In this document: positions 21,840 to 37,304 of the stretch, one piece after another | How the letters are laid out: each line of letters opens with the position of its first letter | Position numbering within the stretch: position 1 is the stretch's first letter | DNA from: Patescibacteria group bacterium | GTDB lineage: Bacteria; Patescibacteriota; Microgenomatia; Levybacterales; UBA12049 | Reading direction: 5' to 3' | DNA length: 64,000 nucleotides | Assembly (NCBI GenBank): GCA_026004395.1 | Contig: BPJB01000001.1 | Coordinates: forward strand, 841,226-905,225 | The notes under the pieces: generated by a model | What the model was told of the DNA's origin: nothing | The model's database searches: none | Seen by the model: the letters and a program-made list of their open reading frames with translations, nothing else | Position numbers and translations under genes: made by a program

Positions 21840-22028
21840 ATGACAGGACCACTCACATTCTTTCAGGAAACATACGACGAGTTAAAAAAAGTGACGTGGC
21901 CATCCAAAGAAGAACTTATTCGTTTGACAGTAATTGTCATAACACTTAGCGTGATAGTTGGTATTTATATTGGAGGGATAGACCTGGCGCTCACCAAAAT
22001 AACAGAGACTTTGTTATTAAAAAAGTAA
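21840..22028 (+). CDS. secE: Preprotein translocase subunit SecE
   Basis: 62-aa single-TM protein (ELKKVTWPSKEELIRLTVIVI...) immediately upstream of nusG. Confidence 0.75.
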   Translation: MTGPLTFFQETYDELKKVTWPSKEELIRLTVIVITLSVIVGIYIGGIDLALTKITETLLLKK

Positions 22029-22045
22029 AATTTATATAATTAACC

Positions 22046-22627
22046 ATGGATCAAACGATACACACACCAACAGAAGAAGAGATAAAAAAAGCCTCTCAGT
22101 CACCCGAGGCTAAATGGTATATTATCCATACTTATGCAGGACATGAGAATAAAGTTGCTCGCTCTCTTAAACAGCGCGTTGAAACAATGGGCTTTCAAAC
22201 CCGTATATTTGATATCATTGTCCCAACAAGAAACACAATCAAAGTACATGGTGGCAAAAAGGAAGAGGTCCAAGAAAAAATCTTTCCGGGATACGTTCTT
22301 GTCAAAATGATTTTGGATGATGAATCCTGGCTTCTTGTTAGAACAACTCCAGGAGTCACAGCATTTATTGGTGCAGGCAACAAACCTACTCCCATCTCTG
22401 AAAAAGAAGTTGAAGCAATTCAACAGTTTATGAAGCAAGAAGAGCCATTGTATAAAACATCATTTACAGTTGGAGAGGCAGTCAAAATTATTGATGGTCC
22501 TTTTGCAGATTTCTTGGGCACAATTGAGCATATAGATGATACTCGAGGAAAATTGCGTGTCCTAGTAAGCATCTTTGGTAGAGAGACACCCGTAGAATTA
22601 GATTTTTTGCAAGTTCAGAAAATCTAA
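22046..22627 (+). CDS. nusG: Transcription termination/antitermination factor NusG
   Basis: KWYIIHTYAGHENKV NGN domain and C-terminal KOW (FTVGEAVKIIDGPFADFLGTIE). Confidence 0.9.
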   Translation: MDQTIHTPTEEEIKKASQSPEAKWYIIHTYAGHENKVARSLKQRVETMGFQTRIFDIIVPTRNTIKVHGGKKEEVQEKIFPGYVLVKMILDDESWLLVRTTPGVTAFIGAGNKPTPISEKEVEAIQQFMKQEEPLYKTSFTVGEAVKIIDGPFADFLGTIEHIDDTRGKLRVLVSIFGRETPVELDFLQVQKI

Positions 22628-22740
22628 ATTGTTTTTCTTAAACTTAAGATGAGAGAAATAATTGGATATCTCACTTCATTTAAACTGTGAAGGAAGATAT
22701 AACGCTGAGAAATTAGCATTTAAAGAAAACAAAAGTAACT

Positions 22741-23163
22741 ATGGCAAAAAAAGTAAAAACAATCATCAAACTTAACATCCCAGCAGGAGCAGCAACTCCT
22801 GCTCCACCTGTTGGACCAGCACTTGGTCAACATGGAGTTCCTATTATGGAGTTTGTCAAAGCCTTCAATGATAAAACTGCTGATCAAAAAGGCAATATTC
22901 TTCCTGTTGTGATTACTGTTTATGAGGATAGAACTTTTTCTTTTGTTACCAAAAAACCTCCAGTTGCTGAAATGATTAAAAAACTGATTGGTCGAGGAGG
23001 CGCTCAAAAACCCGGGAGAGAAAAAGCTGGTACACTGACACGAGCACAAGCTGAGGAAATTGCCAAACAAAAAATGGAAGATCTGAACACTGATGATCTT
23101 GAGATGGCAACTCGTATCGTGATGGGAACAGCACGATCAATGGGAATAGAGGTCAAAGAATAA
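22741..23163 (+). CDS. rplK: 50S ribosomal protein L11
   Basis: [33 protein letters not shown]. Confidence 0.9.
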
Positions 23164-23233
23164 ATTTTTAAAACAGTGAAGTAAATTTAAATTCAAAAAT
23201 AAAAATTTTAAATAATCTCAAAAGGAGATAATT

Positions 23234-24025
23234 ATGGGCAAAATAAGAATCAAAACAATCGGAGACGAAGAATTGGAAAAACAACAAGCTGAAGAAGCTA
23301 AAAAGCGTAGTGAAACAAAGAGAACTGAATCTGAAGAAGCTAAGGATACTCTAAGTTCTCCAAAAGAAAAAAAGGAAAAGAAAGAAAAATTTAAGAAAAG
23401 AACTAGAGGAGCTTCCCGCTCAAAATCTTATCTTATTAAAGCAGAGCTTGTTGATAAAAATAAAAAATACACTCTTGAAGAGGCTATCAAGCTTCTGCCT
23501 CAACTCAAAAGAGCAAAGTTTGATGAAACTGTGGAATTACATTTTACACTCACTGATGGAAGTATGTCAGGAAGTGTAGTACTACCCCACGGAACAGGCA
23601 AACAAATAAAGGTTGCTATTGCAGATGGTAAAAATCCTCAAGAGCTTGATGCGCTAATTAAAAAAATTGAAAGTGGCAATATTGATTTTGATATATTAGT
23701 AGCAACACCGGATGCAATGCCACGACTGGCACGCGTTGCACGCATCTTAGGACCCAAAGGACTTATGCCCAATCCTAAAGCAGGAACTGTAACTACTAAA
23801 CCAGAAGAGGTAGCACAAAAATATCAAGGCGGACAAATCAATTTCAAAACTGAAGCAAAATTTCCTCTCTTGCATATTGCAGTGGGTAAAGTATCATTTG
23901 GAGAAGAAAAAATCAAAGAAAATATCATGGCAATTTTGAAAAGTATTGATCATAAAAAGATCAAAAACGCAACACTTAAAAGTACGATGAGTCCTGCAAT
24001 CCCTCTTGACATAGCATCTTTATAG
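23234..24025 (+). CDS. rplA: 50S ribosomal protein L1 with a ~60-aa Lys/Glu-rich N-terminal extension
   Basis: The L1 core begins near residue 63 (SKSYLIKAELVDKNKKYTLEEAIKLL...DILVATPDAMPRLARVARILGPKGLMPNPKAGTVT); residues 1-60 are low-complexity KE-rich. Confidence 0.85.
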   Translation: MGKIRIKTIGDEELEKQQAEEAKKRSETKRTESEEAKDTLSSPKEKKEKKEKFKKRTRGASRSKSYLIKAELVDKNKKYTLEEAIKLLPQLKRAKFDETVELHFTLTDGSMSGSVVLPHGTGKQIKVAIADGKNPQELDALIKKIESGNIDFDILVATPDAMPRLARVARILGPKGLMPNPKAGTVTTKPEEVAQKYQGGQINFKTEAKFPLLHIAVGKVSFGEEKIKENIMAILKSIDHKKIKNATLKSTMSPAIPLDIASL

Positions 24026-24120
24026 AAGATAAAAAGTTAAAAAAAATAAATTTGAATCTTCTGCAGATCTCAAAAGGTTAATTAATAAGTAAAAAATCTT
24101 TATCTTCTTCATAGATAATT

Positions 24121-25365
24121 ATGCTTAACTGGCAAACATGTTTTTCTCAAATCTTTTATCTTTGGAAAAAACCTTATACTATAAATAATAGAACTATGAT
24201 CTTCAATCAAGTAAAAAAATTTTTGCTATTACAAGGATCTGGCGAAATTTATATTATCTTTATATTAGGATTGACAATGATTGCTGCAGCTCTAATCTCA
24301 GGGGGAATTGAAGAAAAAAAGGATTATCCAACAAAAACAAAACCGACTTCACGCATTACTGGGATACCAGCAAATGACAATCCAGACACTTATGAACTAG
24401 ATGTAAGTGAAGATCAAAAAAAACAAGCAACTCCTTCTCCTCTACTAACTCCTTTAGCATCAGAGAGTGCTCTAGCAGACCTTGCTGTACCCTCACTTAG
24501 GCTAACGGATATCAATGGTAATGAAAAGACTATTTTTGATCCAGGTGAGCGCATATATCCAAAAGTAACATTTACAAACCAAGGGACAAAACGTATTTAC
24601 TCAAGTACAGGCTTTATTTTTAGCCAAATCTATGCCCATCAACCCCAACCGGCAACGCAAGGACAAAAATCAGATGTAAAAATATGGATGAAAAACGGAC
24701 TTTATGCTGCAGGATCAACTAAAACATATGAGGCTCGACCCAACGGAATTAATGATTGGTTCTTTAGAGAAAATCATTTTTGGACTCTCTCTACTCCCGG
24801 TACTTACACTGCTCGAGCATATATTAATTATGACCACGACGGAATTGAGAGTGATTACACCAATAATCAAACAACCATTACCTACCGAATTACTAATAAA
24901 CCAACTCCCACGCCAACCGCTAAACCAACACAGACAACTAACACTCAATCCAGTGGTGTTGGGAATATCAATACACCACCTAATGGAAATACCTGCGGAA
25001 AATATAGTCTTAATAATCCAATAGGAAAAAACTTTGGCGATCCAAACTGCAACTTTACCAAAGATAAACTTTATTCATGGCTTAAAACGCAGGATGCAGC
25101 TAATGCTGATTACTGGTTTTATACCGTAATTCCCTGTGAAGCTCCAGGTTATAATCCCAACACTTATTACCGCTGTGGAGCAGCAGGCTGCACACCAGAT
25201 CCTGCGGGTGCATGGGGACTTTTTCAAATGGGCAGAGGTAGGAATGGTCCGTATGATCATGGAGATGTCAACTGGCCAGCACAGGTTATCAATGCTACTA
25301 CGTATAGACGCAATCTTGGCTGGCATGGATGGACATATTGGGCTTGTGCAAAATCACGTTGGTAA
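24121..25365 (+). CDS. Membrane-anchored secreted muralytic protein: CARDB-like beta-sandwich, PT linker, C-terminal Rpf/transglycosylase-like lysozyme-fold domain (likely start at 24196)
   Basis: Signal anchor IIFILGLTMIAAALISGG. The C-terminus (PCEAPGYNPNTYYRCGAAGC...WGLFQMGRG...GWHGWTYWAC) parallels the Rpf domain (ECESGGNW...YGGVQF...GWGAWPLC). Confidence 0.5.
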   Translation: MLNWQTCFSQIFYLWKKPYTINNRTMIFNQVKKFLLLQGSGEIYIIFILGLTMIAAALISGGIEEKKDYPTKTKPTSRITGIPANDNPDTYELDVSEDQKKQATPSPLLTPLASESALADLAVPSLRLTDINGNEKTIFDPGERIYPKVTFTNQGTKRIYSSTGFIFSQIYAHQPQPATQGQKSDVKIWMKNGLYAAGSTKTYEARPNGINDWFFRENHFWTLSTPGTYTARAYINYDHDGIESDYTNNQTTITYRITNKPTPTPTAKPTQTTNTQSSGVGNINTPPNGNTCGKYSLNNPIGKNFGDPNCNFTKDKLYSWLKTQDAANADYWFYTVIPCEAPGYNPNTYYRCGAAGCTPDPAGAWGLFQMGRGRNGPYDHGDVNWPAQVINATTYRRNLGWHGWTYWACAKSRW

Positions 25366-25376
25366 TATAATCAGAG

Positions 25377-25928
25377 GTGAAACCTCTAAAATTAGTCATG
25401 AATCTATTATTGAATATTAGAAACAAACTAACCAATATTAATCCGGGCATAATTATTGTCATACTTTTTTTACTAACATCAGGACTGCTTGCACTAACTT
25501 TCATTAAAAAAGAAACTCCGCAGAAAGAGACGCCATCTCCCTCTGCTACTCCTACTATTACACCAACTGTGGAAAAATTCAGTTACCTGCCGGAAGAGAC
25601 AGATCGCATGCTTGAATATGTAAAAAAAGAATTACCCCTTTCTCAAGCGGATACAACTATCAGACGTCGCCTTATCGCTGAGGTGAATAATGAAAGCGGT
25701 GTACTCTACGAAACACAAGACTTCATTATAGAGTACGTTAAAACACCCGACGTATTTATGGTGGGGGTAAAGTCAGAAAATATTGAAAATGCAAGAAAAG
25801 ATGCAACAGAGTGGTTTCTCAAGCAAGGTATAAGTAATGAGGGCATCTGTCGTCTCCCTGTTGTGTTCTATCCTCAGTTCGTTCCTCTTAAGAAAACTCC
25901 CTTCAATCCCTTGCCAATCGGATGTTAA
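25377..25928 (+). CDS. Hypothetical membrane-anchored protein with PT-rich linker
   Basis: Single N-terminal TM, PSPSATPTITPT linker, ~110-aa C-terminal domain with no recognised motif. Confidence 0.4.
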   Translation: MKPLKLVMNLLLNIRNKLTNINPGIIIVILFLLTSGLLALTFIKKETPQKETPSPSATPTITPTVEKFSYLPEETDRMLEYVKKELPLSQADTTIRRRLIAEVNNESGVLYETQDFIIEYVKTPDVFMVGVKSENIENARKDATEWFLKQGISNEGICRLPVVFYPQFVPLKKTPFNPLPIGC

Positions 25929-26002
25929 TCCTCTAGATTTTACGCATCAGATAAGCTATACTATAGCTAAATTGGTATTTATTTTAAAAATAGAATAATA
26001 GA

Positions 26003-26644
26003 ATGCGCAATTCTTTTGAACATCCTTCTTTTTATCCTGAAAAACTTGAATTAATTCAAAAGGCACCTCTTATTGGTAAATTTCTATCAATAGATCATAT
26101 TGGACAAATGCTAGATACATCTGATAAGTATCTCCAATCTATCCTTTCTCAGATATCTACCAACAAAGATACTTTCTCTCTCTTAGCTTCATCTCTTGCA
26201 GCAATGGGAGTACACCTCGATCTCCTCAACAGAGAATCTCCCGGTGATGAGTTGATCCTGACAACGACATCTCTACTCATAATCGGGTATCATGTCAGAG
26301 AACAACAACTTCCTTGTTTTAAGATCTTTGATATCTTTCAAGAAGATTTTAGAAAAAAATTACAAGAACTGCGTCTTACCTCACCTGATACTCGTCTTTT
26401 TTCAGATAAGTCTGATCAACTTGATGCCTGGATTGGTAATGCTCTTGGTGTAGGAAGCAGACTAAAACAAATCTTTACCCAAAACAACGATCAAACGATT
26501 CTGTCTCAAAGAGATACGAACAAAGATCTCTCTCATACCCTGTATCCCAAAGAAGAATATCTAAATGGAGAAGAACCCCCTGAGATTCCTCAAGCATTTC
26601 AAAAATTTCTAGCAACTCTTAATCTTGATGATTTTAATAAATAA
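26003..26644 (+). CDS. Hypothetical cytoplasmic protein (213 aa)
   Basis: Long ORF with coding-like composition; no recognisable motifs. Confidence 0.4.
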   Translation: MRNSFEHPSFYPEKLELIQKAPLIGKFLSIDHIGQMLDTSDKYLQSILSQISTNKDTFSLLASSLAAMGVHLDLLNRESPGDELILTTTSLLIIGYHVREQQLPCFKIFDIFQEDFRKKLQELRLTSPDTRLFSDKSDQLDAWIGNALGVGSRLKQIFTQNNDQTILSQRDTNKDLSHTLYPKEEYLNGEEPPEIPQAFQKFLATLNLDDFNK

Positions 26645-26810
26645 ATATACATTTTGAAGTTAAAAAAATTAAAGTTGGAGATACACATCCTCTAAGAGTA
26701 GATTCTTTGACAAAAATAAATTTGTAATATGTAATATATTATAATATAATAATATTTAATTTTTTAATAAAAATTTTATAATTTTATAATTTTATAATTT
26801 TTATTAATCT

Positions 26811-28139
26811 ATGTTTTCCGAGTCTGTATTTTCAGAATCATCTAAAAATATAAAAGAAAACACTGCCCCACAGCCGGCTTTCGATACCCCATTTGTCACT
26901 ATAAACTTCATCTCTACCAATCCAGAAGGCATTGAAGTAGCAACGCGTTATGTCCAAAGACGCAGTGAAGGCTTTGATTCACTTCCTCTCACTGATGAGC
27001 AAAAAGACGCCGCAAAACAAGAAATGCGAAATGAAGTTGCTTTTGTCCTAAAAAGAAAAGGTCTTTTCACAGAGGAAATGAAAAATGAAAAAGATCCTGA
27101 AAGACGCTGGGAGTTAATGCGTAAAGCAATAAAAGACAATAATATTGATTTGACTAGGGAGATGGCATACAAACTAGCTATTAGAAATCAAGAACTTATA
27201 GGAGATACGCTTCTTGTAGATGCAAAGTCTATACCATATCCAATGTACACTATTGGTAGCAGTCCAGATCAGAGCAAAGAAAGTCAGGAATTCACCTCAA
27301 TTGCTGCTGTTGCCGGTGCTTTGGTTACTAAAGATGGAAAGCTTATCATTCAGATGCGATCGGGTAATCGCCTTTTTGATCAAGTCTTAGGAGCAAGCGC
27401 TGCGGGGATGTTTGATAGTGAACATCTAAGAATTAATCTTGGTAAAGATCCCGCAACTGGTCAGACTAACTACCTTAAAGGATATCCGCAGCCAATTAAT
27501 ACAGATACTGTTAAAGGAAAATTTCTTGAGGAGGCATATCAAGAAATTGCTGTAAGATCAGATGATATTGCAAATCTAAGAATATTAGGTACAGCTTTAG
27601 ATCATACATTTGTACATGATGAATTTCTGCTTCTTGGTGAACTAAATCTTACATCAAGTGAACTTGAGGAACGCGCATTATCAGCTCCACGCAGCAAACG
27701 TAAAGAAGGTGATTTTCATTTTGAGGAAAAATTTGTTTTTATAGATGCAACACCTGATGCAATTAAAAAGCTTCTTACTGAAGTTAAAAATCCGCTTCCT
27801 CCTACGCATTTAGCTGCTTTTGTAGCTGCAGGTTATACATTGATCCTTGATGAAGGCCGAGGGAAAGAGGGATACAATAGAGAAGCTAATCTAAAGAAAG
27901 CTGAAGAATGGAAGAAAGAAGTTGAGGAAGGAGTGAGACGCAACTACTCTGAAATCAATAGAATGGTAAAAGAAAATACCTTGCGCAAGAATGGTATTAC
28001 AAATCCAGAAAATATTGCTCGGGTGATTGACTCAGTAGCCGGTTATGACCCTAAAATTCCTGCAACACAGCAAGGCTTACCTGAAATGCTCTCTGAACTT
28101 TATAGGTGTGGATTGATTACAGAGAAACATCATGCATGA
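26811..28139 (+). CDS. Hypothetical protein (442 aa), translationally coupled to the downstream HAD phosphatase
   Basis: 8-nt overlap with the next gene; no confident domain call; an AT-rich promoter-like region with ttttataa x3 lies upstream. Confidence 0.45.
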   Translation: MFSESVFSESSKNIKENTAPQPAFDTPFVTINFISTNPEGIEVATRYVQRRSEGFDSLPLTDEQKDAAKQEMRNEVAFVLKRKGLFTEEMKNEKDPERRWELMRKAIKDNNIDLTREMAYKLAIRNQELIGDTLLVDAKSIPYPMYTIGSSPDQSKESQEFTSIAAVAGALVTKDGKLIIQMRSGNRLFDQVLGASAAGMFDSEHLRINLGKDPATGQTNYLKGYPQPINTDTVKGKFLEEAYQEIAVRSDDIANLRILGTALDHTFVHDEFLLLGELNLTSSELEERALSAPRSKRKEGDFHFEEKFVFIDATPDAIKKLLTEVKNPLPPTHLAAFVAAGYTLILDEGRGKEGYNREANLKKAEEWKKEVEEGVRRNYSEINRMVKENTLRKNGITNPENIARVIDSVAGYDPKIPATQQGLPEMLSELYRCGLITEKHHA

Positions 28140-29067
28140 ATCTCTTACAACACCTGAATCAGTGTTACGATCAGTTCAACGGATGTACATCTTCGATGTA
28201 GATGGACCAATTGTTGAGCCAACATCTGAGACTATTACTCATCCTGAGATCCTCAGTAATATCATTGATGAGCTAAGTGCTGACCGACCAGTTGCATTGA
28301 TTACTGGCCGTGGAATAGACTGGTTGATTAACGGAAAAGAATATACGCACAGCAGCATCCTCTCTGGAGTTGTTGGGTTGATTGAACAACAAATAAATGA
28401 TAAATCCGTACTTGATAATTTTTTTGTATCAGCAGAGTTTGGCGGATGCACGATTACTTATCGCGATGGTGAAAGGATAGTCCATATTCATGAAACCACC
28501 TCTCTTCCTCAACATCTTCTTCAAAAAGCTGAACAATTGATCCAAGAAAAATACTCTGAGACGATGATGGTTGAACCAAAGCTTACTCATTTTACTGCTA
28601 AAATCGAGTCTGTAGATGAGTTAGCTAAACGAGGTAAAACATTTGTTGATTTCAAAAATGAACAAAATAAACTAGTCAAAGATTTAGAAGCACTTCTTAA
28701 ACAAGAAGGACTTTCTAATCAACTTGAGATACATCAAGATAGAATAGCTACAAACATTAGATATAAAAACATTAACAAGTCATTTGCAACAAAGGAAGTC
28801 CTCAGATGGCTGCGTGAAAAAAGAATCGATCCACAACTTTTTGTAGTGTTTGGTGATAGTAGAGGTGATTTTGAAATTTCAGATGCTCTTGCATCTGACT
28901 CTGAAATTCAAGAAAGAAAAAGAAAAATAAAGGTAGTTTATTTAGGATCAGAAAACCAAATAAGAGAAATTATAGACTCACATCCGCAGTATGAGATTGA
29001 GATCCGTCATCACGACGATCTCACGCAAGGTACAGCAGATTTTCTCCAAGAACAAAAATTAAGTTAA
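28132..29067 (+). CDS. HAD-superfamily (subfamily IIB-like) phosphatase
   Basis: Motif I FDVDGPIVEP, motif II LITGRG, motif IV VVFGDSRGDFE. Confidence 0.6.
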   Translation: MHESLTTPESVLRSVQRMYIFDVDGPIVEPTSETITHPEILSNIIDELSADRPVALITGRGIDWLINGKEYTHSSILSGVVGLIEQQINDKSVLDNFFVSAEFGGCTITYRDGERIVHIHETTSLPQHLLQKAEQLIQEKYSETMMVEPKLTHFTAKIESVDELAKRGKTFVDFKNEQNKLVKDLEALLKQEGLSNQLEIHQDRIATNIRYKNINKSFATKEVLRWLREKRIDPQLFVVFGDSRGDFEISDALASDSEIQERKRKIKVVYLGSENQIREIIDSHPQYEIEIRHHDDLTQGTADFLQEQKLS

Positions 29068-29241
29068 CAAACAATCTAAATCACGCGAATTATCTCTTGA
29101 CAACTTAAAATCACAGCCATATAATCCCCTTATGCTGCGATTTTCTCTTAAACTCAATCTTATTACCAAGACCATCCTCTACTCTGTAAGTGAGAGGAGA
29201 TTGGTATAGGAAAAGAGCCAGCAAAAATAATTTTCAAAACC

Positions 29242-29266
29242 AATCTCCTCGCAAGAGGAGATTTTT
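29242..29266 (+). terminator. Rho-independent terminator-like hairpin
   Basis: AATCTCCTC-GCAA-GAGGAGATT perfect 9-bp stem followed by TTTCG; the same GAGGAGATTGG half-site recurs at ~29203. Confidence 0.5.
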
Positions 29267-29449
29267 CGTATATGGCCACTAATTCTAAAGTAATATTGCT
29301 AATACAACAAAAAAAACTCTACATATTGATTCACTCTTTCTTGACAAAAATCAAGCCTGGTGATAATCTCGTGAATAAAAAAAATTAGAAAATGTAAGCC
29401 AATAATTGGCTTTTAAATAAGAGGAAAATATTAAAAAAAACAAAACATT

Positions 29450-30469
29450 ATGGAACATAAAATACACGACCCACTAACAGCTATACTTCTTGATCCTGAA
29501 TTCCATAGAGCAGTAGAAGAAAACAGAGCTGCTGAATTTATTGCTAAAAGATTGGGTGTTACACCTGAAGAAGCTTCTCGCATGACTGACGGAAGAACAA
29601 AAACAAATTCTCCCTCCCCTCAGTCAGACGAAAAAGCCAACCCTGCCCAAAAAGAAGCTATTCAAATAGCATCTAACTCCTCAGAACTACAAAATACTCC
29701 TTCTTTTGAAGATTACTGGACGCGTGTAAGAGGAGGTGTAGGAGACGTTGTGCCGCTAAACTTTGCCAGAGCGCATGAAGAATACCCACAAAATTACCAA
29801 CAATCAGAGAAAAGAGCTAGAGAAAAATATCAGATAGGAGAGCAACCTCATTATTACTCTCAAACCTCATCTAAAGATACCAGGATATTGCAAGCAGAAG
29901 GAATGCAAAATCAATCTCTCCTGCGAAAAAATCCTTCTACCTCAAAGGATATCATTTACTACACCCCACCTCAAAGACGTGCTGGATTGTTATTAACAGG
30001 TGGATTACTAATCGGTATCGTTGCAGGCGCAACAGGAGTCATTTTTACAAAAGACACATTAGATCCCACAAAAACTTCTAATTTACCTTCTGGGCAGTCA
30101 CCCTATACCTACTCTTCTAGTGGTCCTCTGGAACATGGTAGAAATACAACTGAGGAAAATAAAAAAATGTTAGAAGCAATGTCAACAATGGTAATTAATG
30201 TTGCAGAAGAAGTAGATAAAAGACTTAATCCTTCTCCTACACCAACAAGTACTCCAAATCCTATACCTACGCCTACACCTGATCTTGCACAACAAACTTC
30301 ATTCTGCACAACTCCTGAGCCTGGAAAACTCTGCCGCATTCCCCCTCCTCCTCCACCCACCCCTACACCCTATCCCTCATGTGAAAAAATGAATGAGCTT
30401 AGGCCGGGAGACTGGTGTGTCTGGCCAACTGCGGATCCTCGTGGACCGTACGCTGCTTCTTTTGAATGA
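29450..30469 (+). CDS. Hypothetical single-pass membrane protein with Pro/Thr-rich and poly-Pro C-terminal region
   Basis: TM GLLLTGGLLIGIVAGATGVIF; PSPTPTSTPNPIPTPTPDL and PPPPPPTPTPYP tracts; Cys-containing C-terminal tail. Confidence 0.45.
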   Translation: MEHKIHDPLTAILLDPEFHRAVEENRAAEFIAKRLGVTPEEASRMTDGRTKTNSPSPQSDEKANPAQKEAIQIASNSSELQNTPSFEDYWTRVRGGVGDVVPLNFARAHEEYPQNYQQSEKRAREKYQIGEQPHYYSQTSSKDTRILQAEGMQNQSLLRKNPSTSKDIIYYTPPQRRAGLLLTGGLLIGIVAGATGVIFTKDTLDPTKTSNLPSGQSPYTYSSSGPLEHGRNTTEENKKMLEAMSTMVINVAEEVDKRLNPSPTPTSTPNPIPTPTPDLAQQTSFCTTPEPGKLCRIPPPPPPTPTPYPSCEKMNELRPGDWCVWPTADPRGPYAASFE

Positions 30470-30738
30470 AAAACTAAAATATCAGCTTAAATAATACAAG
30501 GATTAATTATTATGATTATTAGTTGCTTCAATAGAATAAATATTAATCATCAAGATTATTAAATTAAAATTATTTTAAACACATTCTCAACTACTGTTAA
30601 ATTAATGCATGTAGGACAATTTTTACACCTTTATAATTTATCTTTATTCTAAATCTTTTGTCAGAATATTAAATTCGATAAATTAAAAAAACGATAAAAC
30701 TTACTCTAATTTATCTTAATTAATTTCATTACTAATCA

Positions 30739-30790
30739 AAATCACAAAATACCGCTCGAGTGTGAATTTGTGATTTGCTCTTACAATTCT
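30739..30790. repeat. REP-like palindromic element, copy 2 (between convergent gene ends; likely bidirectional terminator)
   Basis: Identical to copy 1 over 52 nt (hairpin 30741..30774, CTCGAG at 30755..30760). Confidence 0.85.
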
Positions 30791-30825
30791 AAAATGATTC
30801 CCGAATAAAGAATAACTATAGATTT

Positions 30826-31494
30826 TTAAGCTAAGCCAAAATAAGTTTTGTAAGCTGCGTCATCTTCAATTTTCTCCACCAAAAGATACTTCAAATACCT
30901 TCCTACTCCATAATATTCACGTAAAAATTCTATTTCATCGTAACAAGGATAGGGAATTAGATAGACACTTTCTTGTATTGATAAAAATCCCAGATTTTTA
31001 AGTATGTGCGATAAAAGCTCTTGCAGCCGTTTTTGCTGTTGAGGAATATCATACATAACAACTCTCCATTTACCATCCCATCTATGAGGTTTTTTAATTA
31101 TTAACTCTTCAAGAGCATAGGTGAGAATTCTTTTTCTACCATCTTTTGTGATGATGATTGTCTGTTTGCCGTTGACATACTTTCTTTGAATTAGTTTTTG
31201 TTTTTCAAGCCTCTTAAGTGTTTGACGCAGATAACCATGGTTAAATTTCTTCCATTGTTCCCATTCGTTATTATTCTTTTCCAAAGATTTTGCCATGAGA
31301 AATGCTGCACGTGGGGCAAAAAATGCTGCTGGAATTAAAATTCCCATTCCCAGGAATGTAAGCACTGTCTTAATTTGAGCATAACGCTTTCTACCATCTT
31401 CGTGGCTAATTCTTTGATATAATAAACGAGCTATTTTTTCAATTTGTGCATCTGACGGAATTCTATCTATCATAAGTGAAAATAATAAAATCAA
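30826..31494 (-). CDS. PaaX-like architecture: hydrophobic segment, winged-HTH, C-terminal Cas2/VapD-like domain; bracketed by REP-like repeats
   Basis: wHTH-like LRQTLKRLEKQKLIQRKYVNGKQTIIITKDGRKRIL. C-terminal WRVVMYDIPQQQKRLQELLSHILKNLGFLSIQESVYLI fits the Cas2/VapD beta-alpha-beta signature (V-V-x-YD[IV]...R-L...G...[IV]Q-x-SV[YF]). Confidence 0.4.
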   Translation of the reverse strand: MILLFSLMIDRIPSDAQIEKIARLLYQRISHEDGRKRYAQIKTVLTFLGMGILIPAAFFAPRAAFLMAKSLEKNNNEWEQWKKFNHGYLRQTLKRLEKQKLIQRKYVNGKQTIIITKDGRKRILTYALEELIIKKPHRWDGKWRVVMYDIPQQQKRLQELLSHILKNLGFLSIQESVYLIPYPCYDEIEFLREYYGVGRYLKYLLVEKIEDDAAYKTYFGLA

Positions 31495-31571
31495 ACCTCT
31501 TATTTATCCTAACATAAAAAAATAATAAATAAATAATTAATGTTAAATTAATAGCATTATAACCTATAGTC

Positions 31572-31622
31572 AAAATCACGAAATGCCGCTCGAGTGTGAA
31601 TTTGCGATTTTTCTTACAATTC
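31572..31622. repeat. REP-like palindromic element, copy 3 (diverged; in the divergent promoter region between 30826..31494 and rplJ)
   Basis: aaatcacGaaatGccgctcgagtgtgaatttgCgattttTcttacaattct; 4 substitutions relative to copies 1 and 2. Confidence 0.8.
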
Positions 31623-32045
31623 TAACTAAATTCAAACTAAATTGAATATAATGAAGTATTTATGAAAATAGACTTTAAGTTTTATTTGACTTTAAAATAT
31701 TTATTAATTAAGTCTGTTTTTAAAAATAATTTGAGAAAAATATTTTCCTTTTTACCTACTTTTAATTTTTCACAAAGAATGTATCCCATATGTTTTAATG
31801 CAATTCGAAGCCTTGCATTTTACTAATTTATTTGCTAGAATGTTTTTATCCAGAGACAGCTGGTTCTGATAAACAGAATAAATCCAGCCGAGGAGAAAAT
31901 ACACGACGCGTTTGAGGAAAGCAATACCTTTACTTCGAACGAAGAAGATACACTCCTTGGCGAGTGTTTTTTTACGACAAAACAGTTTATTGTTTGTTAG
32001 ATAGACTTCAGAACCAAGTAGAAAATTCTGGAAGATATTACACAT

Positions 32046-32606
32046 ATGGCAAAAACAGCTGCGGTATCACATCAGGCAACTCCCTATACAGGACGCGCAA
32101 GAAAAGAAGCAATTGTCAAAGAACTTTCTGAAAAAATTCAAAAAGCAAAAGCATTTGTGTTCACCAATTATCAAGGTCTTACGCATCAACAGCTCGAAGG
32201 GTTAAAGAAAGCAGTTAAAAAAATTGATGCAGAGTTTGTGGCTGTTAAAAATACTCTTATACTTAGAGCACTAAAGGACTATCCTCTATCAGAGGAAGAC
32301 AAGTCATATTTTAAAAATCCAACAGCTGTACTTTTTATCTACAGCGACATAGTAGAACCACTAAAACATTTAGCCAAAACAATAAAAGATCTTGGTCTTC
32401 CAGTAGTAAAGTTTGGTATTTTAGACAAAAAATCAATTACCGCTGAACAAGTTCTCAACCTAGCTACACTACCGCCACTTCCTGTACTTCGAGCGCAACT
32501 TTTAGGACAGATGAAATCGCCTATTCAAGGTTTACATCGAGCATTGCAATGGAATATTCAATCTTTAGTGATGACATTAAACGCTATTGCACAGAAAAAA
32601 TCTTAA
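32046..32606 (+). CDS. rplJ: 50S ribosomal protein L10
   Basis: KEAIVKELSEKIQKAKAFVFTNYQGLTHQQLEGLKKAVKK; followed by rplL. Confidence 0.85.
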   Translation: MAKTAAVSHQATPYTGRARKEAIVKELSEKIQKAKAFVFTNYQGLTHQQLEGLKKAVKKIDAEFVAVKNTLILRALKDYPLSEEDKSYFKNPTAVLFIYSDIVEPLKHLAKTIKDLGLPVVKFGILDKKSITAEQVLNLATLPPLPVLRAQLLGQMKSPIQGLHRALQWNIQSLVMTLNAIAQKKS

Positions 32607-32681
32607 CGTTTGTCCTTGCGACAAGCAAAGCGAGGAGAAATCTCCTCTAAACAAAAATCAAGGAAAGGTGGTGAATGAAAA

Positions 32682-33077
32682 ATGGCAAAACTTTCTAAAG
32701 AAGAATTAATTGAAGCAATTGAGCAGATGTCTGTTCTTGAGCTCTCAGATCTGGTGAAAGCACTTGAAGAAAAGTTTGGAGTAAGTGCGGCTGCGATGGC
32801 CGTTGCTGCTGCTCCTCAACCAGCGGCAGGAGCACAAGCTGAATCTGCTCCAGCTGAAGAACAAACAGTTTTCAATGTTGTTCTTACCAATCCTGGAGCC
32901 AACAAAATAGCTGTAATTAAAGCAATACGGGAATTAGTTCCAACACTGGGGCTTAAAGAAGCTAAAGATCTTGTCGATACTGCTCCAAAAGAAATCCTAA
33001 CGCAGGTCAACAAAAAAACAGCAGAAGAAGCAAAAGAGAAGTTAACGGCTGCAGGTGCAACTGTAGAACTCAAATAA
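32682..33077 (+). CDS. rplL: 50S ribosomal protein L7/L12
   Basis: [38 protein letters not shown], Ala/Pro hinge, C-terminal [12 protein letters not shown]...[12 protein letters not shown]. Confidence 0.9.
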
Positions 33078-33275: not shown

Positions 33276-36200
33276 ATGGGGTTTCTATCACCCATCACAT
33301 TACTTTATCAACAGCTTTCTTTGAAAAAAAGATATATCTTACTTACTCTTTTACTTTTCATACTCCTCCCACTTTTTCTTCTTGTAGCTTTTCGATCAAC
33401 AGAACTTCGCAATCGTGCATCCACCACAGCTTCTCTTGAAGCGGAGGACGGTACAGTTGTAGGTGATGTCCAAATCATATCCGATGCCAGTGCCTCCTCA
33501 GGAAAATACATTGAATTTTCCAAATCAAACACAGCAATCATTGGAACAAAATATTATGTAGATTGTGTAAATGGCAATGATAATAACAGTGGCACATCAG
33601 AAAACTCAGCTTGGAAATCATTAACAAAAGCCAGTCAAGCCAATCTTTCACCGGGAGATGGGTTACTCCTCAAACAGGGATGTGTATTCTCTGACTCTTT
33701 AAGCATCCCTTGGCAAGCAACTGATACAGCTCCTATTGTTATTTCATCTTATGGACAAGGAAATCCTCCTATTATCAGAACATCGGTCAATAACTCAGCA
33801 GGTGTAAAAATTAGCGGATCTTATATCATCATACAAAATATAACAGCCGAGGGTATAGCTCCAACAATTGATCCGGGTTGTTCGGATAATTCTAAAGGCT
33901 ATATAGTCGGTTTTCAGTTAGAGGATGGCTCTCATCATATAACCTTAAGAAACGTAAAGGCAACAGGAAACTATGCAGGAGTATATATCAAAACAAACTC
34001 GTCATTCAACAAAATTCTCAACAGTACATTTGCAAATAACCGTATGATGAACCCACTTGATACAGCAAGTGATAATGACGCAGGCGCATTTGGTATCCTT
34101 ATTCATGGAAAAGATAATGAAATTGCTTATAATACTCTCTCTGGACAGGATGCGTGCTCATATGATTATGGTAGAGATGGTGCGGACATTGAGGTATATA
34201 AAGGACAAAGAAATAACATTCATCATAATATAGGCAGTAATAGCGATGCATTTACTGAACTAGGTGGTGACAGTAGCATAAAGGCTGCAGATAATATATA
34301 TGCCTATAATGTCTTCACATCTTCTCTAAATAAATCAATTTTTCTTGTAACTCGTGGATCAGGAGTAAAATACGGTCCCGTGTATAGGACAAAGCTTTAT
34401 AACAACTCAGTGTACCTAACTGGCGGATCATCGCAAGGATTTGTCTGCCATGCAGGCTGCAGTAGCGAAATTCTCACTATGCGCAACAATATCATCAAAG
34501 CTGGTCAAAAAGATGGCTACGCTGATGGTACATTTGATGAAAATTATAATCTTTATGGAGGAACATCCCAACAATTTACTCTTGGACCAAATAGCAAAAA
34601 AGCAGACCCTCGATTCACTAGTACAATCAATCTTCATCTTCAAGCGGGCAGTCCAGCCATTGACGCTGGCAGCCAAGACTCAATATCAGCAGGATATCGA
34701 AATGATTTAGACAATACTCCTGTTCCACAAGGTAGTGCTGTTGATATGGGTGCATATGAATATAGATCAGTACTTGGAGCCAAAACACAGGCAATTGGAG
34801 GACAAGTTCTGCAAGCATCTTCAAAGCCAATAACTATCGCGGCAGTTGGCGATATGAATCCAGATGGCAACACTAGCACCACCTCACCCTCTGGTAAGAA
34901 CGCTGCGGCAATAGCAGCAGGATTGGCAAATGGATCAATTGATGCATTTTTAGGTCTTGGCGATTTTCAATACAGCATTGGCAACTGCTCATCATTCGTT
35001 AATTATTGGAATCGTTTATGGAGTGGCACCAAATCTAAACTCTATTGGATAAGTGCTCCTAACCATGACTGGGAGCCAGGACGAAATGAGGATTTGGATG
35101 ATTTTATGAATGGAGCCTGCCCCGGTGATAACGTAAAAAGTGCTATTAATGCTCAGCGTGGATTTATCGGCAATGGTGATCCGTATTCTTTTGATATTGG
35201 TAATTGGCATTTTGCGATGCTTAGCACTGCCTTATGGCGTTATGATACAACCAAAGCAAGACAAGTAACTACATGGCTTGATAACGACCTCGCGCAAGCA
35301 AAAGCTGCTGGCAAATTTCTTGTCGTTGCCTACCATGATCCCTATTTTACCAGCAACACCTCTTCCCACAGCCGGGAGACAGCTGTGAAACCTTGGATAG
35401 ATATTATGGACAAATATGATGTACGATTGACATTGTCAGGTTCTCAACATAACTATGAGAGATCCTGTCCTGTCACCAAAGATGATATCTGTGCTGCAGA
35501 GAACGATCCGAATGGCATGACAGCATTTCAAGTCTCAACTGGCGGAATTGGACTACGTTCATTTACAAGCTCACCCTCCTATATTGTCAAAAGGTTTTCC
35601 GATACATGGGGCTGGCTTAAATTATCTCTTTATCCTGACGGATCTTTCTCATGGCAATTTAATCCCGTACAAGGATCAAGCACCGACTCCGGATTTCGAC
35701 CTGCTCCGGGAAGCAGTATCTCCCCTGCTCCAACATCCACTCCGACTCCATCTCTGACACCTACACCCCTTCCTTCACCAACACCAACTGCTTCTCTTTC
35801 AACACCTACTCCAACAGCCACTCCATGCCCAGTTATACCCCAAAATGCTGGATCAGTAGTAACATCTATTACAATTCCTACAGAGGGAACATATGCTGTC
35901 TGGTCTAGAATCAAAGCGAACGATGAATTTAACAACTCTTACTTTCTGCAGATAGATGACTCCTGTCCATATGTTGTGGGTGATGCATCTTTGATCTCTA
36001 AAGATGCATGGAGTTGGGTGAATTACCAAAATGGTAATCCGCAACAAAAGATTGAAATTAACCTTAAGCAGGGAACACATATTATTAAACTAATAGCACG
36101 TGAAACTGGGGTCAAAGTTGATAAACTCCTCTTTCTCTCTGATAGCAGCTGCATACCAACTGATTTAGGAGATAACTGTACTGCATCTACTCTTCCTACA

Positions 36201-37304
36201 CCCACGAATACCCCAACTCCTACACCAACATCTACTCCAACTCCTATTTCTACACCAACACCTACACCATCACCTACGCCAACAAGCACTAATACTCCCA
36301 CTCCACATCCAACCTCTTCAACTACACCTACACCGATTTTAGGACAAACCATAGATCTTTTACCTTTGGCTGATACTTTTGTACGAAAAGACCATCCAAC
36401 CCGCAACTATGGATCATCTACTCATCTTGAATCAGACGGTGATACAAGAGCGATCTCATATCTTAAATTTGATCTTAGAGCACTTGCTGGTAAATCTTTA
36501 ACAACTGCCCAATTATCACTAACAATAACCAATCCGTCTAAACAAGCGCACTATATTTATCTTTTGACCAATACAGCATGGGAAGAATCTACTATAAACT
36601 ATGCAACACGCATAGAACCTACAAACTCTCCTATCGCTTCAATTCCTCCTTCAGACAAAGGCAAAAAGCTTACAATCAATCTTACACCTGCTCTTAAAAA
36701 CCACTTAGGTGAAATAATCACTTTAGCAATTACTTCATCATCTAGCGATGGAATGGACTTCTACTCCAAAGAAGCAGCATCAGGCAAACCACTACTCTCC
36801 ATAGCAACAGATACTCAATCTGTTAGTACATTAAAAGAAGAAGTATTCTTACCTATTGATGATACATTTGTCCATAAAGACAACCCCCAAACCAATTATG
36901 GTTCATGGAAATCATTGGAAGTTGATGGGGATCCACAAAAAATTATATATATGAAATTTGATCTATCAAAGTTAGCAGGAAAAATAATTCGTCATGCAGA
37001 ATTAAGATTTCGTGTTAAAGATACTTCATACTCAACACAGATTATTCGTTTTGTTGAAAATCATCAATGGGATGAGCACACTTTAAATTTTGTAAAACGA
37101 TACCAACCCTCACTACCAATTCGAACAATTCATGGAGGTAAAAAGGATACTTATCTTAACATTGACGTTACCTCAGTTGTACAGCTTAAAGCAGGCACTA
37201 TTTTTTCTTTTTTGATTGAATCAAACGGTAGTGATGGACTTGATATCTACTCCAAAGAGATACCCAATCCTGACTATCGTCCCGCACTGATAGTATCCTA
37301 CTAA
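33276..37304 (+). CDS. Giant secreted multidomain protein: signal anchor, right-handed beta-helix region, purple-acid-phosphatase-like metallophosphoesterase, PT linkers, two tandem DNRLRE-like C-terminal domains
   Basis: Metallophosphatase motifs GDMNPDG, GDFQY, NHDWEPG, YHDPYF, GSQHNYERS. Two ~150-aa internal repeats (LPLADTFVRKDHPTRNYGSS...YLKFDL / LPIDDTFVHKDNPQTNYGSW...YMKFDL) match the DNRLRE domain pattern. The minus-strand ORFs inside are frame shadows of the PT linkers. Confidence 0.6.
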   Translation: MGFLSPITLLYQQLSLKKRYILLTLLLFILLPLFLLVAFRSTELRNRASTTASLEAEDGTVVGDVQIISDASASSGKYIEFSKSNTAIIGTKYYVDCVNGNDNNSGTSENSAWKSLTKASQANLSPGDGLLLKQGCVFSDSLSIPWQATDTAPIVISSYGQGNPPIIRTSVNNSAGVKISGSYIIIQNITAEGIAPTIDPGCSDNSKGYIVGFQLEDGSHHITLRNVKATGNYAGVYIKTNSSFNKILNSTFANNRMMNPLDTASDNDAGAFGILIHGKDNEIAYNTLSGQDACSYDYGRDGADIEVYKGQRNNIHHNIGSNSDAFTELGGDSSIKAADNIYAYNVFTSSLNKSIFLVTRGSGVKYGPVYRTKLYNNSVYLTGGSSQGFVCHAGCSSEILTMRNNIIKAGQKDGYADGTFDENYNLYGGTSQQFTLGPNSKKADPRFTSTINLHLQAGSPAIDAGSQDSISAGYRNDLDNTPVPQGSAVDMGAYEYRSVLGAKTQAIGGQVLQASSKPITIAAVGDMNPDGNTSTTSPSGKNAAAIAAGLANGSIDAFLGLGDFQYSIGNCSSFVNYWNRLWSGTKSKLYWISAPNHDWEPGRNEDLDDFMNGACPGDNVKSAINAQRGFIGNGDPYSFDIGNWHFAMLSTALWRYDTTKARQVTTWLDNDLAQAKAAGKFLVVAYHDPYFTSNTSSHSRETAVKPWIDIMDKYDVRLTLSGSQHNYERSCPVTKDDICAAENDPNGMTAFQVSTGGIGLRSFTSSPSYIVKRFSDTWGWLKLSLYPDGSFSWQFNPVQGSSTDSGFRPAPGSSISPAPTSTPTPSLTPTPLPSPTPTASLSTPTPTATPCPVIPQNAGSVVTSITIPTEGTYAVWSRIKANDEFNNSYFLQIDDSCPYVVGDASLISKDAWSWVNYQNGNPQQKIEINLKQGTHIIKLIARETGVKVDKLLFLSDSSCIPTDLGDNCTASTLPTPTNTPTPTPTSTPTPISTPTPTPSPTPTSTNTPTPHPTSSTTPTPILGQTIDLLPLADTFVRKDHPTRNYGSSTHLESDGDTRAISYLKFDLRALAGKSLTTAQLSLTITNPSKQAHYIYLLTNTAWEESTINYATRIEPTNSPIASIPPSDKGKKLTINLTPALKNHLGEIITLAITSSSSDGMDFYSKEAASGKPLLSIATDTQSVSTLKEEVFLPIDDTFVHKDNPQTNYGSWKSLEVDGDPQKIIYMKFDLSKLAGKIIRHAELRFRVKDTSYSTQIIRFVENHQWDEHTLNFVKRYQPSLPIRTIHGGKKDTYLNIDVTSVVQLKAGTIFSFLIESNGSDGLDIYSKEIPNPDYRPALIVSY

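Follow-up and report, generated by a model that had tools for sequence, protein, structure and literature searches.

The 8-kb stretch that separates rplA from rplJ in the genome of an uncultured Levybacteria-type bacterium (candidate phyla radiation, Patescibacteria) is probably a native, mostly vertically inherited interval, whose gene content has accumulated, and is still changing, at a permissive site. There is good reason to regard that site as the boundary of two separate transcription units, rplK-rplA and rplJ-rplL. Related genomes carry between 0 and 8 genes at this operon boundary, which argues for an old and slowly changing interval rather than a recent foreign insertion. The sequence analysed, here called the window, comprises 64,000 nucleotides of this genome. 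The homologues of its L10 protein carry the names Levybacteria or Patescibacteria.

Within the window, rplK and rplA form the left anchor of the interval (22741..24025, plus strand), and rplJ (32046-32606) and rplL (32682-33077) form the right anchor (32046..33077, plus strand). Pfam searches confirm all four genes, with Ribosomal_L11 at 22741-23163, L1 at 23234-24025, and L10 and L12 matched by rplJ and rplL, respectively. The split between the two pairs, which had been recognised in an earlier note on this DNA, is real: rplA stops at 24025 and rplJ starts at 32046, leaving a gap of 8,020 nt. Upstream, secE (21840-22028) and nusG (22046-22627) are contiguous with rplK-rplA, and this block is common to all relatives examined. 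Downstream of rplL lies a gene for a 1,342-aa CBM96 protein, not rpoBC. Seven open reading frames (ORFs) occur between rplA and rplJ, six of them on the plus strand and the last (ORF7) on the minus strand.

Genes also lie between rplKA and rplJL (Rv0651-52) in Mycobacterium tuberculosis. The two pairs are likewise reported to be separated by genes in Bradyrhizobium diazoefficiens and Actinomyces israelii (10.1101/2025.04.14.645983). The split as such is thus already known in other bacteria, and contiguity of rplK-rplA-rplJ-rplL is not universal. As in the window, the known splits have unrelated genes between rplA and rplJ and leave each ribosomal pair intact. The window differs from them in that its interval has been traced over related uncultured CPR genomes, with 0 to 8 genes and recurring modules. 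In addition, its cargo has no relation to the genes found in those taxa, and rplL is separated from rpoBC as well.

Only about 14 related loci were sampled, with the homology of interval genes assigned by tblastn and blastp. Across these relatives, the rplA-rplJ gap ranges from 289 to 8,804 nt and holds 0 to 8 genes. L095 has no interval genes and a gap of 289 nt, L087/88 has a single methyltransferase gene on the minus strand, and L097 and L092/93 have an ORF4 homologue alone. An ORF4-like gene is accompanied by a 510-aa gene in L090/91, and an ORF4-HAD fusion by a 239-aa gene in L100. L099 carries homologues of ORF1 and ORF2 plus a 630-aa gene, and L094 carries three unrelated genes. The modules that recur at the site in varied combinations are the ORF1-ORF2 pair, ORF4 (alone or together with HAD), and a protein of 565-630 aa. 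Relatives at 78-82% core identity have homologues of ORF1/ORF2 or ORF4 at the same site, as subsets.

The closest relative, L096 (97% core-protein identity), has ORF1-6 of the window and a 565-aa gene, that is, the same interval without the PaaX-like gene (ORF7) and with one extra gene. L084, whose L10 is 92% identical to that of the window, shares the whole interval. Two clean indels distinguish the window from L096. One is a 1.7-kb gene that L096 carries and the window is missing; the other is about 0.9 kb that is extra in the window, namely the PaaX-like gene together with an additional copy of a 38-nt palindrome. The ORF5-ORF6 spacer (29097..29326, plus strand) contains a perfect sigma70 consensus (29097-29125), a hairpin (29191-29253), and a breakpoint (29314/29326) at which L096 and L084 carry an extra gene of 565/578 aa.

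The cargo includes three putative envelope proteins with membrane anchors, ORF1, ORF2, and ORF6. ORF1 (389 aa, 24196..25365, plus strand) begins with a membrane anchor, continues with a beta-sandwich domain, and ends in a Cys-rich lysozyme-like domain; the longest frame opens at 24121, and homologues and gene calls start at 24196. The C-terminal motif CE[SA]...GAWGLFQM has a nearly invariant Glu in CE[SA] and a conserved GLFQM. An AF2 model of residues 276-414 has a pLDDT of 89, and its top Foldseek matches are all c-type lysozymes, although weak (E 0.04-0.5, TM ~0.5). Pfam SLT is matched weakly by 4 of 30 ORF1 homologues (best E 0.001), and the domains that partner the lysozyme-like domain in homologues are VanY, M15_4, glucosaminidase, and CHAP. 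ORF1 itself matches neither PF06737 (Rpf) nor PF01464 (SLT). Consequently, its former description as an Rpf-like muralytic protein stands at the level of a lysozyme-like domain and not at that of the Rpf/SLT family. With weak fold scores, the domain is a putative cell-wall domain.

The translation of ORF2 (183 aa, 25377..25928, plus strand) shows a membrane anchor at the N-terminus and a Pro/Thr linker, and the protein matches no Pfam or NCBIfam family. It travels with ORF1, and its homologues come after ORF1 homologues in L096 and L099. ORF3 (213 aa, 26003..26644, plus strand) has homologues only in the closest relatives. ORF6 (339 aa, 29450..30469, plus strand) is the most diverged cargo gene, with 58-59% identity to close relatives. 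Its translation has a single hydrophobic segment in the middle and a C-terminus rich in Pro, in agreement with its initial annotation as a Pro-rich membrane protein.

The most widely shared resident of the interval is ORF4 (442 aa, 26811..28139, plus strand), a NUDT22-like protein of two domains, in which both the Nudix fold and a NUDT22-type N-terminal domain are present. The canonical Nudix box GX5EX7REUXEEXGU is absent, and there is no match to PF00293 or any other Pfam or NCBIfam family. Instead, the family alignment conserves G194-A-S-x-A-G-M-x-D202 and, on a helix, E241/E245. ORF4 shares only about 16% sequence identity with human NUDT22 (PDB 5lor/5lou), and differs from it in having about 100 additional residues of helical structure at the C-terminus and in being coupled or fused to a HAD-IIB phosphatase. 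We are aware of no such coupling or fusion for NUDT22.

The description of ORF5 (311 aa, 28132..29067, plus strand), which overlaps the ORF4 stop by 8 nt, as a HAD-IIB phosphatase is supported: the protein has HAD motifs I (DVDG, residue 22), II (TGR, residue 58), and IV (GDSRGD, residue 241), and aligns to the HAD half of ORF4-HAD fusion proteins. The HAD halves of such fusions pass Hydrolase_3 (up to 38.3 bits vs 20.9); the matches of ORF5 itself to Pfam and NCBIfam HAD models are all below threshold (Trehalose_PPase, 20.2 bits vs 27). Among the best 150 of 267 representatives of the ORF4 family, 50 have at least 600 aa, and 38 of these 50 have an hDxDG motif. Hydrolase_3 was found in 7 of 10 representatives tested, at either the N- or the C-terminus. 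The two proteins may act in sequence. ORF4 would split an NDP-sugar, or an NDP-X of related type, into NMP and a sugar phosphate, which ORF5 would then dephosphorylate.

ORF7 (222 aa, 30826..31494, minus strand) was described as a wHTH plus Cas2-like gene, and this is borne out by a PaaX_M match of 66.2 bits (threshold 24, E 2.9e-18). Like members of the PaaX family, it has a winged helix followed by the Cas2-like PaaX_M domain. Unlike them, it has an extra N-terminal hydrophobic segment, no paa genes nearby, and no PaaX C-terminal domain (no PaaX_C match; 32.3 vs 264.55 bits for TIGR02277, full-length PaaX). An assignment to Cas2 was rejected, with PF09827 at 23.3 vs 23.8 bits and TIGR01573 at 23.0 vs 24.5, each over only about 35 residues. 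No cas genes are present among the seven ORFs of the interval. ORF7 is best regarded as a putative PaaX-like DNA-binding regulator. It is present in the window, L084, and L086 and absent in L096, and, judged from these sequences, it is a recent gain or loss.

The gene is indeed bracketed by two REP-like palindromes, as first noted. These lie at 30733..30776 and 31567..31610 as direct repeats on the plus strand, 91% identical over 44 nt, with the core AAATCAC-N-GCTCGAGTG-N-GTGATTT. The 38-nt palindrome family has four copies in the 64-kb window, where none is expected by chance. Among the fetched loci it occurs only in the closest relatives, and at the corresponding position of L096 (15675-15715) there is just one copy. 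The palindrome resembles REP/BIME elements in being short and imperfect, with several intergenic copies (4 in 64 kb), and in its association with assembly breaks and a local indel. It differs from them in being A/T-rich with a central CTCGAG and in forming only a weak hairpin when folded as RNA, and no RAYT-type transposase was seen. The copies flanking ORF7 are candidate binding or recombination sites, and the palindrome may just as well serve the neighbouring PaaX-like regulator as its operator.

The interval was originally interpreted as an accessory insertion. Part of this interpretation stands, as the canonical rplKAJL block is split, its content is variable, and rplA and rplJ are adjacent in at least one of the more distant relatives, L095. 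What does not stand is a discrete or recent insertion of foreign origin. That a discrete accessory island was recently acquired by horizontal transfer into a contiguous rplKAJL cluster is quite improbable, even though the cargo varies among relatives, is largely of the envelope/surface type that is typical of flexible genome regions, and includes in the PaaX-like gene a true presence/absence polymorphism between direct repeats. The synteny comparison suggested in the earlier note goes against such an island, since L096 and L084 carry the same content at the site. Furthermore, ORF1-3 differ from those of L096 no more than the adjoining ribosomal genes do (~90% nucleotide identity, in one collinear block at 22737-26641), and homologous modules are found at the same site at 78-82% core identity. 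Presence/absence of the whole interval is not seen among the close relatives L096 and L084, where polymorphism is limited to the PaaX cassette and a single gene of 1.7 kb. Composition gives no sign of foreign origin either: the cargo does not stand out from the rest of the window in GC (0.34-0.42, vs 0.365 for the window), GC3 (0.24-0.34), or codon usage, whose correlation with the background falls in the range of the flanking genes. Aside from the Cas2-like domain, no integrase, transposase, phage, or defence genes were detected in the seven ORFs (Pfam, NCBIfam, PHROG, PADLOC). There is no tRNA between 15484 and 64000, and no att-like repeat pair bounds 24.0-31.8 kb, within which repeats bracket the PaaX-like gene alone. 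A recent island is thus largely refuted for the region as a whole. A chimeric contig, joined at 24.0-24.1 kb or 31.6-32.0 kb, has next to no probability. The palindromic repeat does break assemblies, with contigs L001, L085, and L086 terminating at or close to a copy. However, the left junction and the sequence from rplA to ORF6 are identical in the 14-kb Logan contig L001, L096 (from another sample) is collinear across both junctions, and L084 and L086 show the right junction again, together with the PaaX-like gene. Independent assemblies have therefore already refuted the mis-assembly for which the earlier note allowed.

Another explanation is that the interval is not just a permissive site, and that ORF4-ORF5 stay near ribosomal-protein genes because their substrate is connected with translation, for instance an alarmone, an RNA nucleotide cap, or a compound of nucleotide salvage linked to ribosome synthesis. 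This would fit the occurrence of ORF4 homologues in the rplA-rplJ interval of at least seven different loci, one of them in fused form, and a fused homologue in L098 that begins 13 nt after the gene for the ribosome-associated GTPase bipA/typA. Similarly, at least 8 of 24 ORF4 homologues found by word search are on contigs equal in length to contigs with L10 homologues. Such a linkage is nevertheless rather unlikely. ORF4 has been lost here in L087/88, L099, L094, and L095, whose loci as fetched show no sign that it was replaced, and shared ancestry may alone explain the linkage among related genomes. In addition, the sole characterised structural relative, human NUDT22, is a UDP-glucose/UDP-galactose hydrolase (PMC10101856).

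Under the preferred reading of a native interval, several genes would already have been at the site in the common ancestor of the window and its relatives at 78-82% core identity, with modules later lost or exchanged in individual lineages. Homologous recombination anchored in the conserved ribosomal flanks is a possible route for such exchange, and recombination between short repeats is a possible route for the PaaX cassette. In a neighbour-joining tree of five core proteins (845 columns), the window and L096 are sister to a group of L099, L092, L088, L091, and L097. As this tree is without support values and has an arbitrarily picked outgroup, it fits both an ancestral interval with differential loss and repeated gains at a hotspot.

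In the window and in all relatives examined, every cargo gene sits downstream of the rplA stop and upstream of the rplJ promoter. The rplJ control region (31813..31981, plus strand) was delineated by Rfam, a terminator scan, and comparison of loci. It comprises a predicted promoter (-35 TTGCAT at 31813-31818 and -10 TAGAAT at 31836-31841), the L10 leader motif AGACAGCUGG...CCAGCCGAGG at 31854-31893, and a predicted attenuator hairpin with a T-run at 31950-31973. The Rfam L10_leader model (RF00557) aligns over its full length (1-138) at 31832-31981 with 35.7 bits at an E of 0.0075; the gathering threshold is 44, and a search in gathering mode does not return it. A sigma70-type promoter, L10 leader, and attenuator lie directly before rplJ in all 12 loci compared, each with the AGACAG...CCGAGG motif followed by a hairpin and T-run. 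In each of 11 loci the 5-bp helix of the leader keeps its pairing, and three of the pairs show changes on both sides (covariation). The window thus resembles the E. coli-type L11 and L10 (beta) operons in its separate rplJ promoter, and the E. coli-type leader in its motif, helix, and terminator-like hairpin. It differs in its sub-threshold Rfam score, in the lack of rpoBC downstream, and in an rplA-rplJ distance of 8 kb rather than a few hundred nt. The leader had been said to abut a REP copy. In fact, the nearest palindrome ends 203 nt upstream of the -35 element, and promoter, leader, and attenuator are intact. Since these elements are kept in all 12 genomes, the regulation of rplJL is expected to be independent of the cargo. 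The target of L10-L12 autoregulation is the leader, which moves together with rplJ, and the cargo would therefore leave ribosomal-protein regulation undisturbed.

The rplA stop codon and the rplJ start codon of the window are separated by 8,020 nt holding seven ORFs, which bears out the earlier note's description of rplKA and rplJL split by about 8 kb with seven inserted ORFs. According to the ORF listing and Pfam, secE (21840-22028), nusG (22046-22627), rplK (22741-23163) and rplA (23234-24025) lie upstream of this gap, and rplJ (32046-32606) and rplL (32682-33077) lie downstream. The cargo comprises ORF1 (24121/24196-25365, 414/389 aa), ORF2 (25377-25928, 183 aa), ORF3 (26003-26644, 213 aa), ORF4 (26811-28139, 442 aa), ORF5 (28132-29067, 311 aa) and ORF6 (29450-30469, 339 aa) on the plus strand, and ORF7 (30826-31494, 222 aa) on the minus strand. 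The closest named homologues of L10 belong to Candidatus Levybacteria or to Patescibacteria group bacteria. Ribosomal protein L1 has a Lys/Glu-rich N-terminal extension of ~90 aa, with the Pfam L1 domain starting at residue 92, and relatives (loci L002, L087, L090, L092, L094 and L095) encode L1 proteins of 263-289 aa with a similar extension.

Mis-assembly at the junctions, named in the earlier note as a possible refutation, is ruled out as the source of the rplA-rplJ layout, since the junctions are reproduced in other assemblies. An identical 14-kb contig (L001), taken from a Logan assembly, runs from rplA through ORF6; L096, a close relative from another run, is collinear across both junctions; and two loci from NCBI assemblies (L084, another close relative, and L086) cross the right junction, ORF7 included.

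The canonical supercluster, secE-nusG-rplKAJL-rpoBC with tRNA-tuf-rpmG-secE as its upstream order, is interrupted at more than one place in the window. A 6.3-kb stretch encoding an RnfD-like protein, a GAF histidine kinase, PAP2 and GalU, all on the minus strand, keeps secE apart from rpmG (14540-14716) and tRNA-Trp (15413), and rplL is followed by a gene for a 1,342-aa CBM96 protein, not by rpoBC. Breaks upstream of secE and downstream of rplL are also found in relatives. In relatives the histidine kinase-PAP2-GalU block is likewise found upstream of secE. Between 13298 and 21840, tRNA-Thr/Tyr/Thr, rpmG and tRNA-Trp are present but tuf is absent, and a small 101-aa ORF with the look of a helix-turn-helix protein (14981-15286) sits between rpmG and tRNA-Trp. 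A second variable site occupies the other side of rplJL, downstream of rplL. There, rpoBC never follows directly in the window, L087, L092, L095 or L097, and each genome has a different giant surface-type protein, with CBM96, F5/8 type C, Laminin_G or Peptidase_S74 domains (window 33276-37304; L087 4265-8998; L092 12267-15260; L095 12158-17434; L097 13702-21099).

Loci retrieved through exact-protein look-ups with homologues of L10 and ORF4 carry very different content between rplA and rplJ. No gene lies in the 289-nt gap of L095. Short gaps hold a single minus-strand methyltransferase gene (884 nt, L087/88), a frameshift-split ORF4 homologue that is 68% identical (1,545 nt, L092/93), an ORF4 homologue that is 67% identical (1,582 nt, L097), or a methyltransferase and a 308-aa gene (2,002 nt, L002). 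Longer ones hold a 765-aa ORF4-HAD fusion and a 239-aa minus-strand gene (about 3,200 nt, L100), an ORF4-like gene (38% identical) and a 510-aa gene (3,371 nt, L090/91), homologues of ORF1 (59%) and ORF2 (45%) with a 630-aa gene (4,188 nt, L099), or a 176-aa gene, a beta-helix protein and a polysaccharide lyase (5,152 nt, L094). The gap of L096 reaches 8,804 nt, with homologues of ORF1-6 and a 565-aa gene but no ORF7, and L084, whose L10 is 92% identical, has homologues of ORF2-7 and a 578-aa gene; the 565/578-aa gene is homologous to the 630-aa gene of L099. On two short contigs with a more distant L1 (L082, L083), a minus-strand ORF other than rplJ lies directly 3' of rplA. As to the synteny comparison suggested in the earlier note, the close relatives L096 and L084 share the interval, and rplA and rplJ are adjacent in L095, a more distant relative.

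A neighbour-joining tree of NusG, L11, L1, L10 and L12 (845 columns, drawn with an assumed rooting and no support values) pairs the window with L096 (97% identical) and makes this pair the sister of a group formed by L099, L092, L088, L091 and L097, which are 78-82% identical to the window over these five core proteins. Outside these groups fall L094 and L095, at ~70% identity. Because homologous modules occupy this site both in the window-L096 pair and in its sister group, the multi-gene interval, on this sequence comparison, most likely predates the split between the two; individual lineages would subsequently have lost, retained or exchanged modules. The main uncertainty is whether the site has instead been filled by repeated gains, rather than by ancestral content followed by losses.

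Composition and divergence also bear on the origin of the interval. The seven cargo ORFs have a GC content of 0.34-0.42 and a GC3 of 0.24-0.34, the window as a whole has a GC content of 0.365, and their codon usage agrees with that of the rest of the window. From rplK through ORF3, the window and L096 form a single collinear block of ~90% nucleotide identity, and the adjoining blocks are 89% identical upstream and 87% from rplJ onwards; the divergence of ORF1-3 is therefore in step with that of the ribosomal genes. No integrase, transposase, phage or defence family was matched among the seven ORFs in Pfam, NCBIfam, PADLOC and PHROGs, except for a short Cas2-like stretch of ORF7, which together with one weak hydrolase match was all that PADLOC and PHROGs returned. 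No match to phages was found for ORF7, and the plasmid collection gave two remote PaaX-like proteins only. Consequently, of the accessory insertion proposed in the earlier note, the split and the variability of the site stand, but a recent origin does not, given the modules shared with relatives and the native composition. The interval is probably old and native, remodelled in place at an operon boundary.

The region upstream of rplJ defines this boundary. In 12/12 aligned loci, whatever the cargo, there is a -35/-10 pair, predicted in the window as TTGCAT (31813-31818) and TAGAAT (31836-31841) with a 17-nt spacer. An AGACAG-helix-CCGAGG motif ~10 nt beyond the -10 element and a hairpin with a T-run shortly before the rplJ start codon (31950-31973 in the window) are likewise found in all 12 loci, and the 5-bp helix adjoining the leader motif is paired in 11/11 loci, with both-sided changes at three pairs. 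At its gathering threshold, Rfam reported tRNAs only; the L10 leader was recovered in E-value mode at 31832-31981, with 35.7 bits (under the gathering score of 44) and an E-value of 0.0075. Since promoter, leader motif and hairpin are kept whatever the cargo, variable DNA is limited to the stretch from the rplA stop to the rplJ promoter, which, as judged from these predicted elements, separates two transcription units. In the L11 and L10 operons of Escherichia coli, L10-L12 autoregulation acts on the L10 leader. By analogy, this autoregulation should be indifferent to DNA upstream of the leader. The leader, which the earlier note described as abutting a REP copy and a divergent regulator-like gene, is intact and conserved.

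The stretch from rplA to ORF1 showed nothing resembling a terminator, and rplA transcripts may therefore continue into ORF1-3. Candidate promoters lie ahead of ORF4 (26722-26750) and of ORF6 (29097-29125), the latter a perfect sigma70 consensus (TTGACA-17-TATAAT). In the ORF5-ORF6 spacer, this consensus is followed by a hairpin with 23-nt arms (29191-29253) and a terminator-like site (29242-29263), and all three lie just upstream of the point where the additional 565/578-aa gene stands in relatives.

Two clean differences separate the window from L096. The 1.7-kb gene (565 aa) of L096 is absent from the window, with its breakpoint at 29314/29326, and ~0.9 kb between 30762 and 31787 is extra in the window, corresponding to ORF7 and one more palindrome copy. 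The two palindromes that the earlier note saw bracketing ORF7 are indeed there, as a 44-nt direct repeat that is 91% identical (30733-30776 and 31567-31610). Its 38-nt palindromic core, AAATCAC..GCTCGAGTG..GTGATTT, occurs between genes four times within the 64 kb (16747-16784, 30739-30776, 31573-31610 and, on the minus strand, 50095-50132), against none expected by chance. One palindrome is found at the homologous position in L096 (15675-15715), resembling the right-hand copy of L084. Recombination between direct repeats, as a deletion or as the gain of a cassette, would leave just this pattern, a single palindrome in one genome and ORF7 with two in the other. The fetched loci show the family in the closest relatives only, and contigs L001, L085 and L086 terminate at or near a copy. 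As RNA, the palindrome forms a weak A/U-rich hairpin only. A role as intrinsic terminator was not adopted, the hairpins being weak (-7 to -14 kcal/mol, z +0.1 to -3.7) and without a proper T-tract. A REP-like element, an operator for ORF7 and a recombination site are all candidates.

Several cargo products appear directed to the cell envelope. ORF1 combines a membrane anchor, a beta-sandwich domain and a Cys-rich C-terminal domain. The beta-sandwich (aa 111-259; 24451-24897) is 35% identical to a segment encoded at 46693-47139 on the minus strand, and appears to be a surface-protein module common to proteins of this genome; that segment belongs to a 705-aa GH43 protein (46087-48204). The Cys-rich domain is common to about 80 CPR proteins, and CPR homologues join it to VanY, M15_4, glucosaminidase, CHAP or DUF11. 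Its AF2 model (pLDDT 89) matches lysozyme-like folds exclusively, but weakly; Pfam SLT is touched by 4/30 homologues, and a CE[SA]...GAWGLFQM motif is conserved. The predicted structure may fairly be called a lysozyme-like cell-wall domain. The "Rpf-like muralytic" label given to ORF1 earlier is supported as far as a lysozyme-like domain, and not as far as a place in the Rpf family. Both ORF2 and ORF6 have a membrane anchor and Pro-rich segments. ORF7 has a winged helix-turn-helix followed by a Cas2-like PaaX_M domain (66 bits); its identification as a full PaaX or Cas2 was rejected on the Pfam, NCBIfam and PADLOC results.

One widely shared part of the cargo is the pair ORF4-ORF5, whose reading frames overlap by 8 nt. 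ORF4 had no sequence match in Pfam, NCBIfam or PDB, and a PDB search with its profile gave nothing meaningful; its likeness to NUDT22, a Nudix-fold protein, comes from fold comparison only. NUDT22 cleaves UDP-glucose into UMP and glucose-1-phosphate (PMC10101856). The canonical Nudix box is absent from ORF4; the residues conserved in its family include G194-D202 and, on a predicted helix, E241/E245. A word-based search returned 24 homologues, each either without a name or assigned to Patescibacteria, and a full profile search 267 cluster representatives. ORF5 has HAD motifs I, II and IV and weak T6PP/HAD matches. Homologues in which ORF4 is fused to a HAD domain make up about a third of the family representatives: among the 150 best of the 267 representatives, 50 have at least 600 aa, and 38 of these 50 contain an hDxDG motif. 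Hydrolase_3 was detected in 7 of 10 tested proteins, mostly as the C-terminal part but in two as the N-terminal part. That the two are fused in either order argues strongly for joint action of ORF4 and ORF5, and from this a two-step reaction is predicted: ORF4 would cleave an NDP-sugar (or NDP-X) to NMP and a phosphorylated product, which the ORF5 phosphatase would then dephosphorylate.

Some genomes naturally encode ORF4-family proteins in two parts, with the break between the N-terminal and the Nudix domain (~aa 175-190). The homologue in L084 (1384-2709) has an in-frame stop and a restart, that in L092/L093 (8501-9815) is frameshifted in two assemblies, and the profile search also recovered stand-alone N-terminal (177-190 aa) and C-terminal (about 260-290 aa) proteins. 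In locus L098 (8159-11944), a 647-aa ORF4-HAD fusion lies 13 nt 3' of bipA/typA, a ribosome-associated GTPase gene, on the same strand, and not in the rplA-rplJ gap of that genome. It is conceivable, though improbable, that the pair is an undescribed bifunctional family kept near ribosomal-protein or ribosome-GTPase genes because it ties ribosome synthesis to the turnover of nucleotides or nucleotide sugars (or to the removal of alarmones or RNA caps) in organisms of minimal metabolism. If so, the rplA-rplJ gap would be a functional neighbourhood, not merely a tolerated one.

Separation of rplKA from rplJL is itself a known exception. In Mycobacterium tuberculosis the two pairs are also apart (Rv0640-41 ... 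Rv0651-52). For Actinomyces israelii and Bradyrhizobium diazoefficiens, genes between rplKA and rplJL are reported (10.1101/2025.04.14.645983). Gene order and ribosomal proteins in Levybacteria were looked for in the literature, and no paper listed mentions Levybacteria. The arrangement is thus another example of this exception, here followed across a set of CPR relatives; what it adds is the coincidence of the break with an operon boundary and the wide sharing of one enzyme pair at the site. Neither a new kind of mobile element nor a new regulatory mechanism is revealed.

What emerges is one CPR lineage in which secE-nusG-rplKAJL-rpoBC is broken at each transcription-unit boundary. Annotation, synteny-based binning and quality-control tools that assume a contiguous rplKAJL should tolerate such a split. 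The interval has also brought to light a candidate enzyme pair, a NUDT22-like Nudix protein and a HAD-IIB phosphatase. It offers a clean case of a permissive site set by operon architecture: genes for envelope and sugar-nucleotide functions have long been able to dock between rplA and rplJ, and the L10 autoregulatory leader has remained joined to rplJ.
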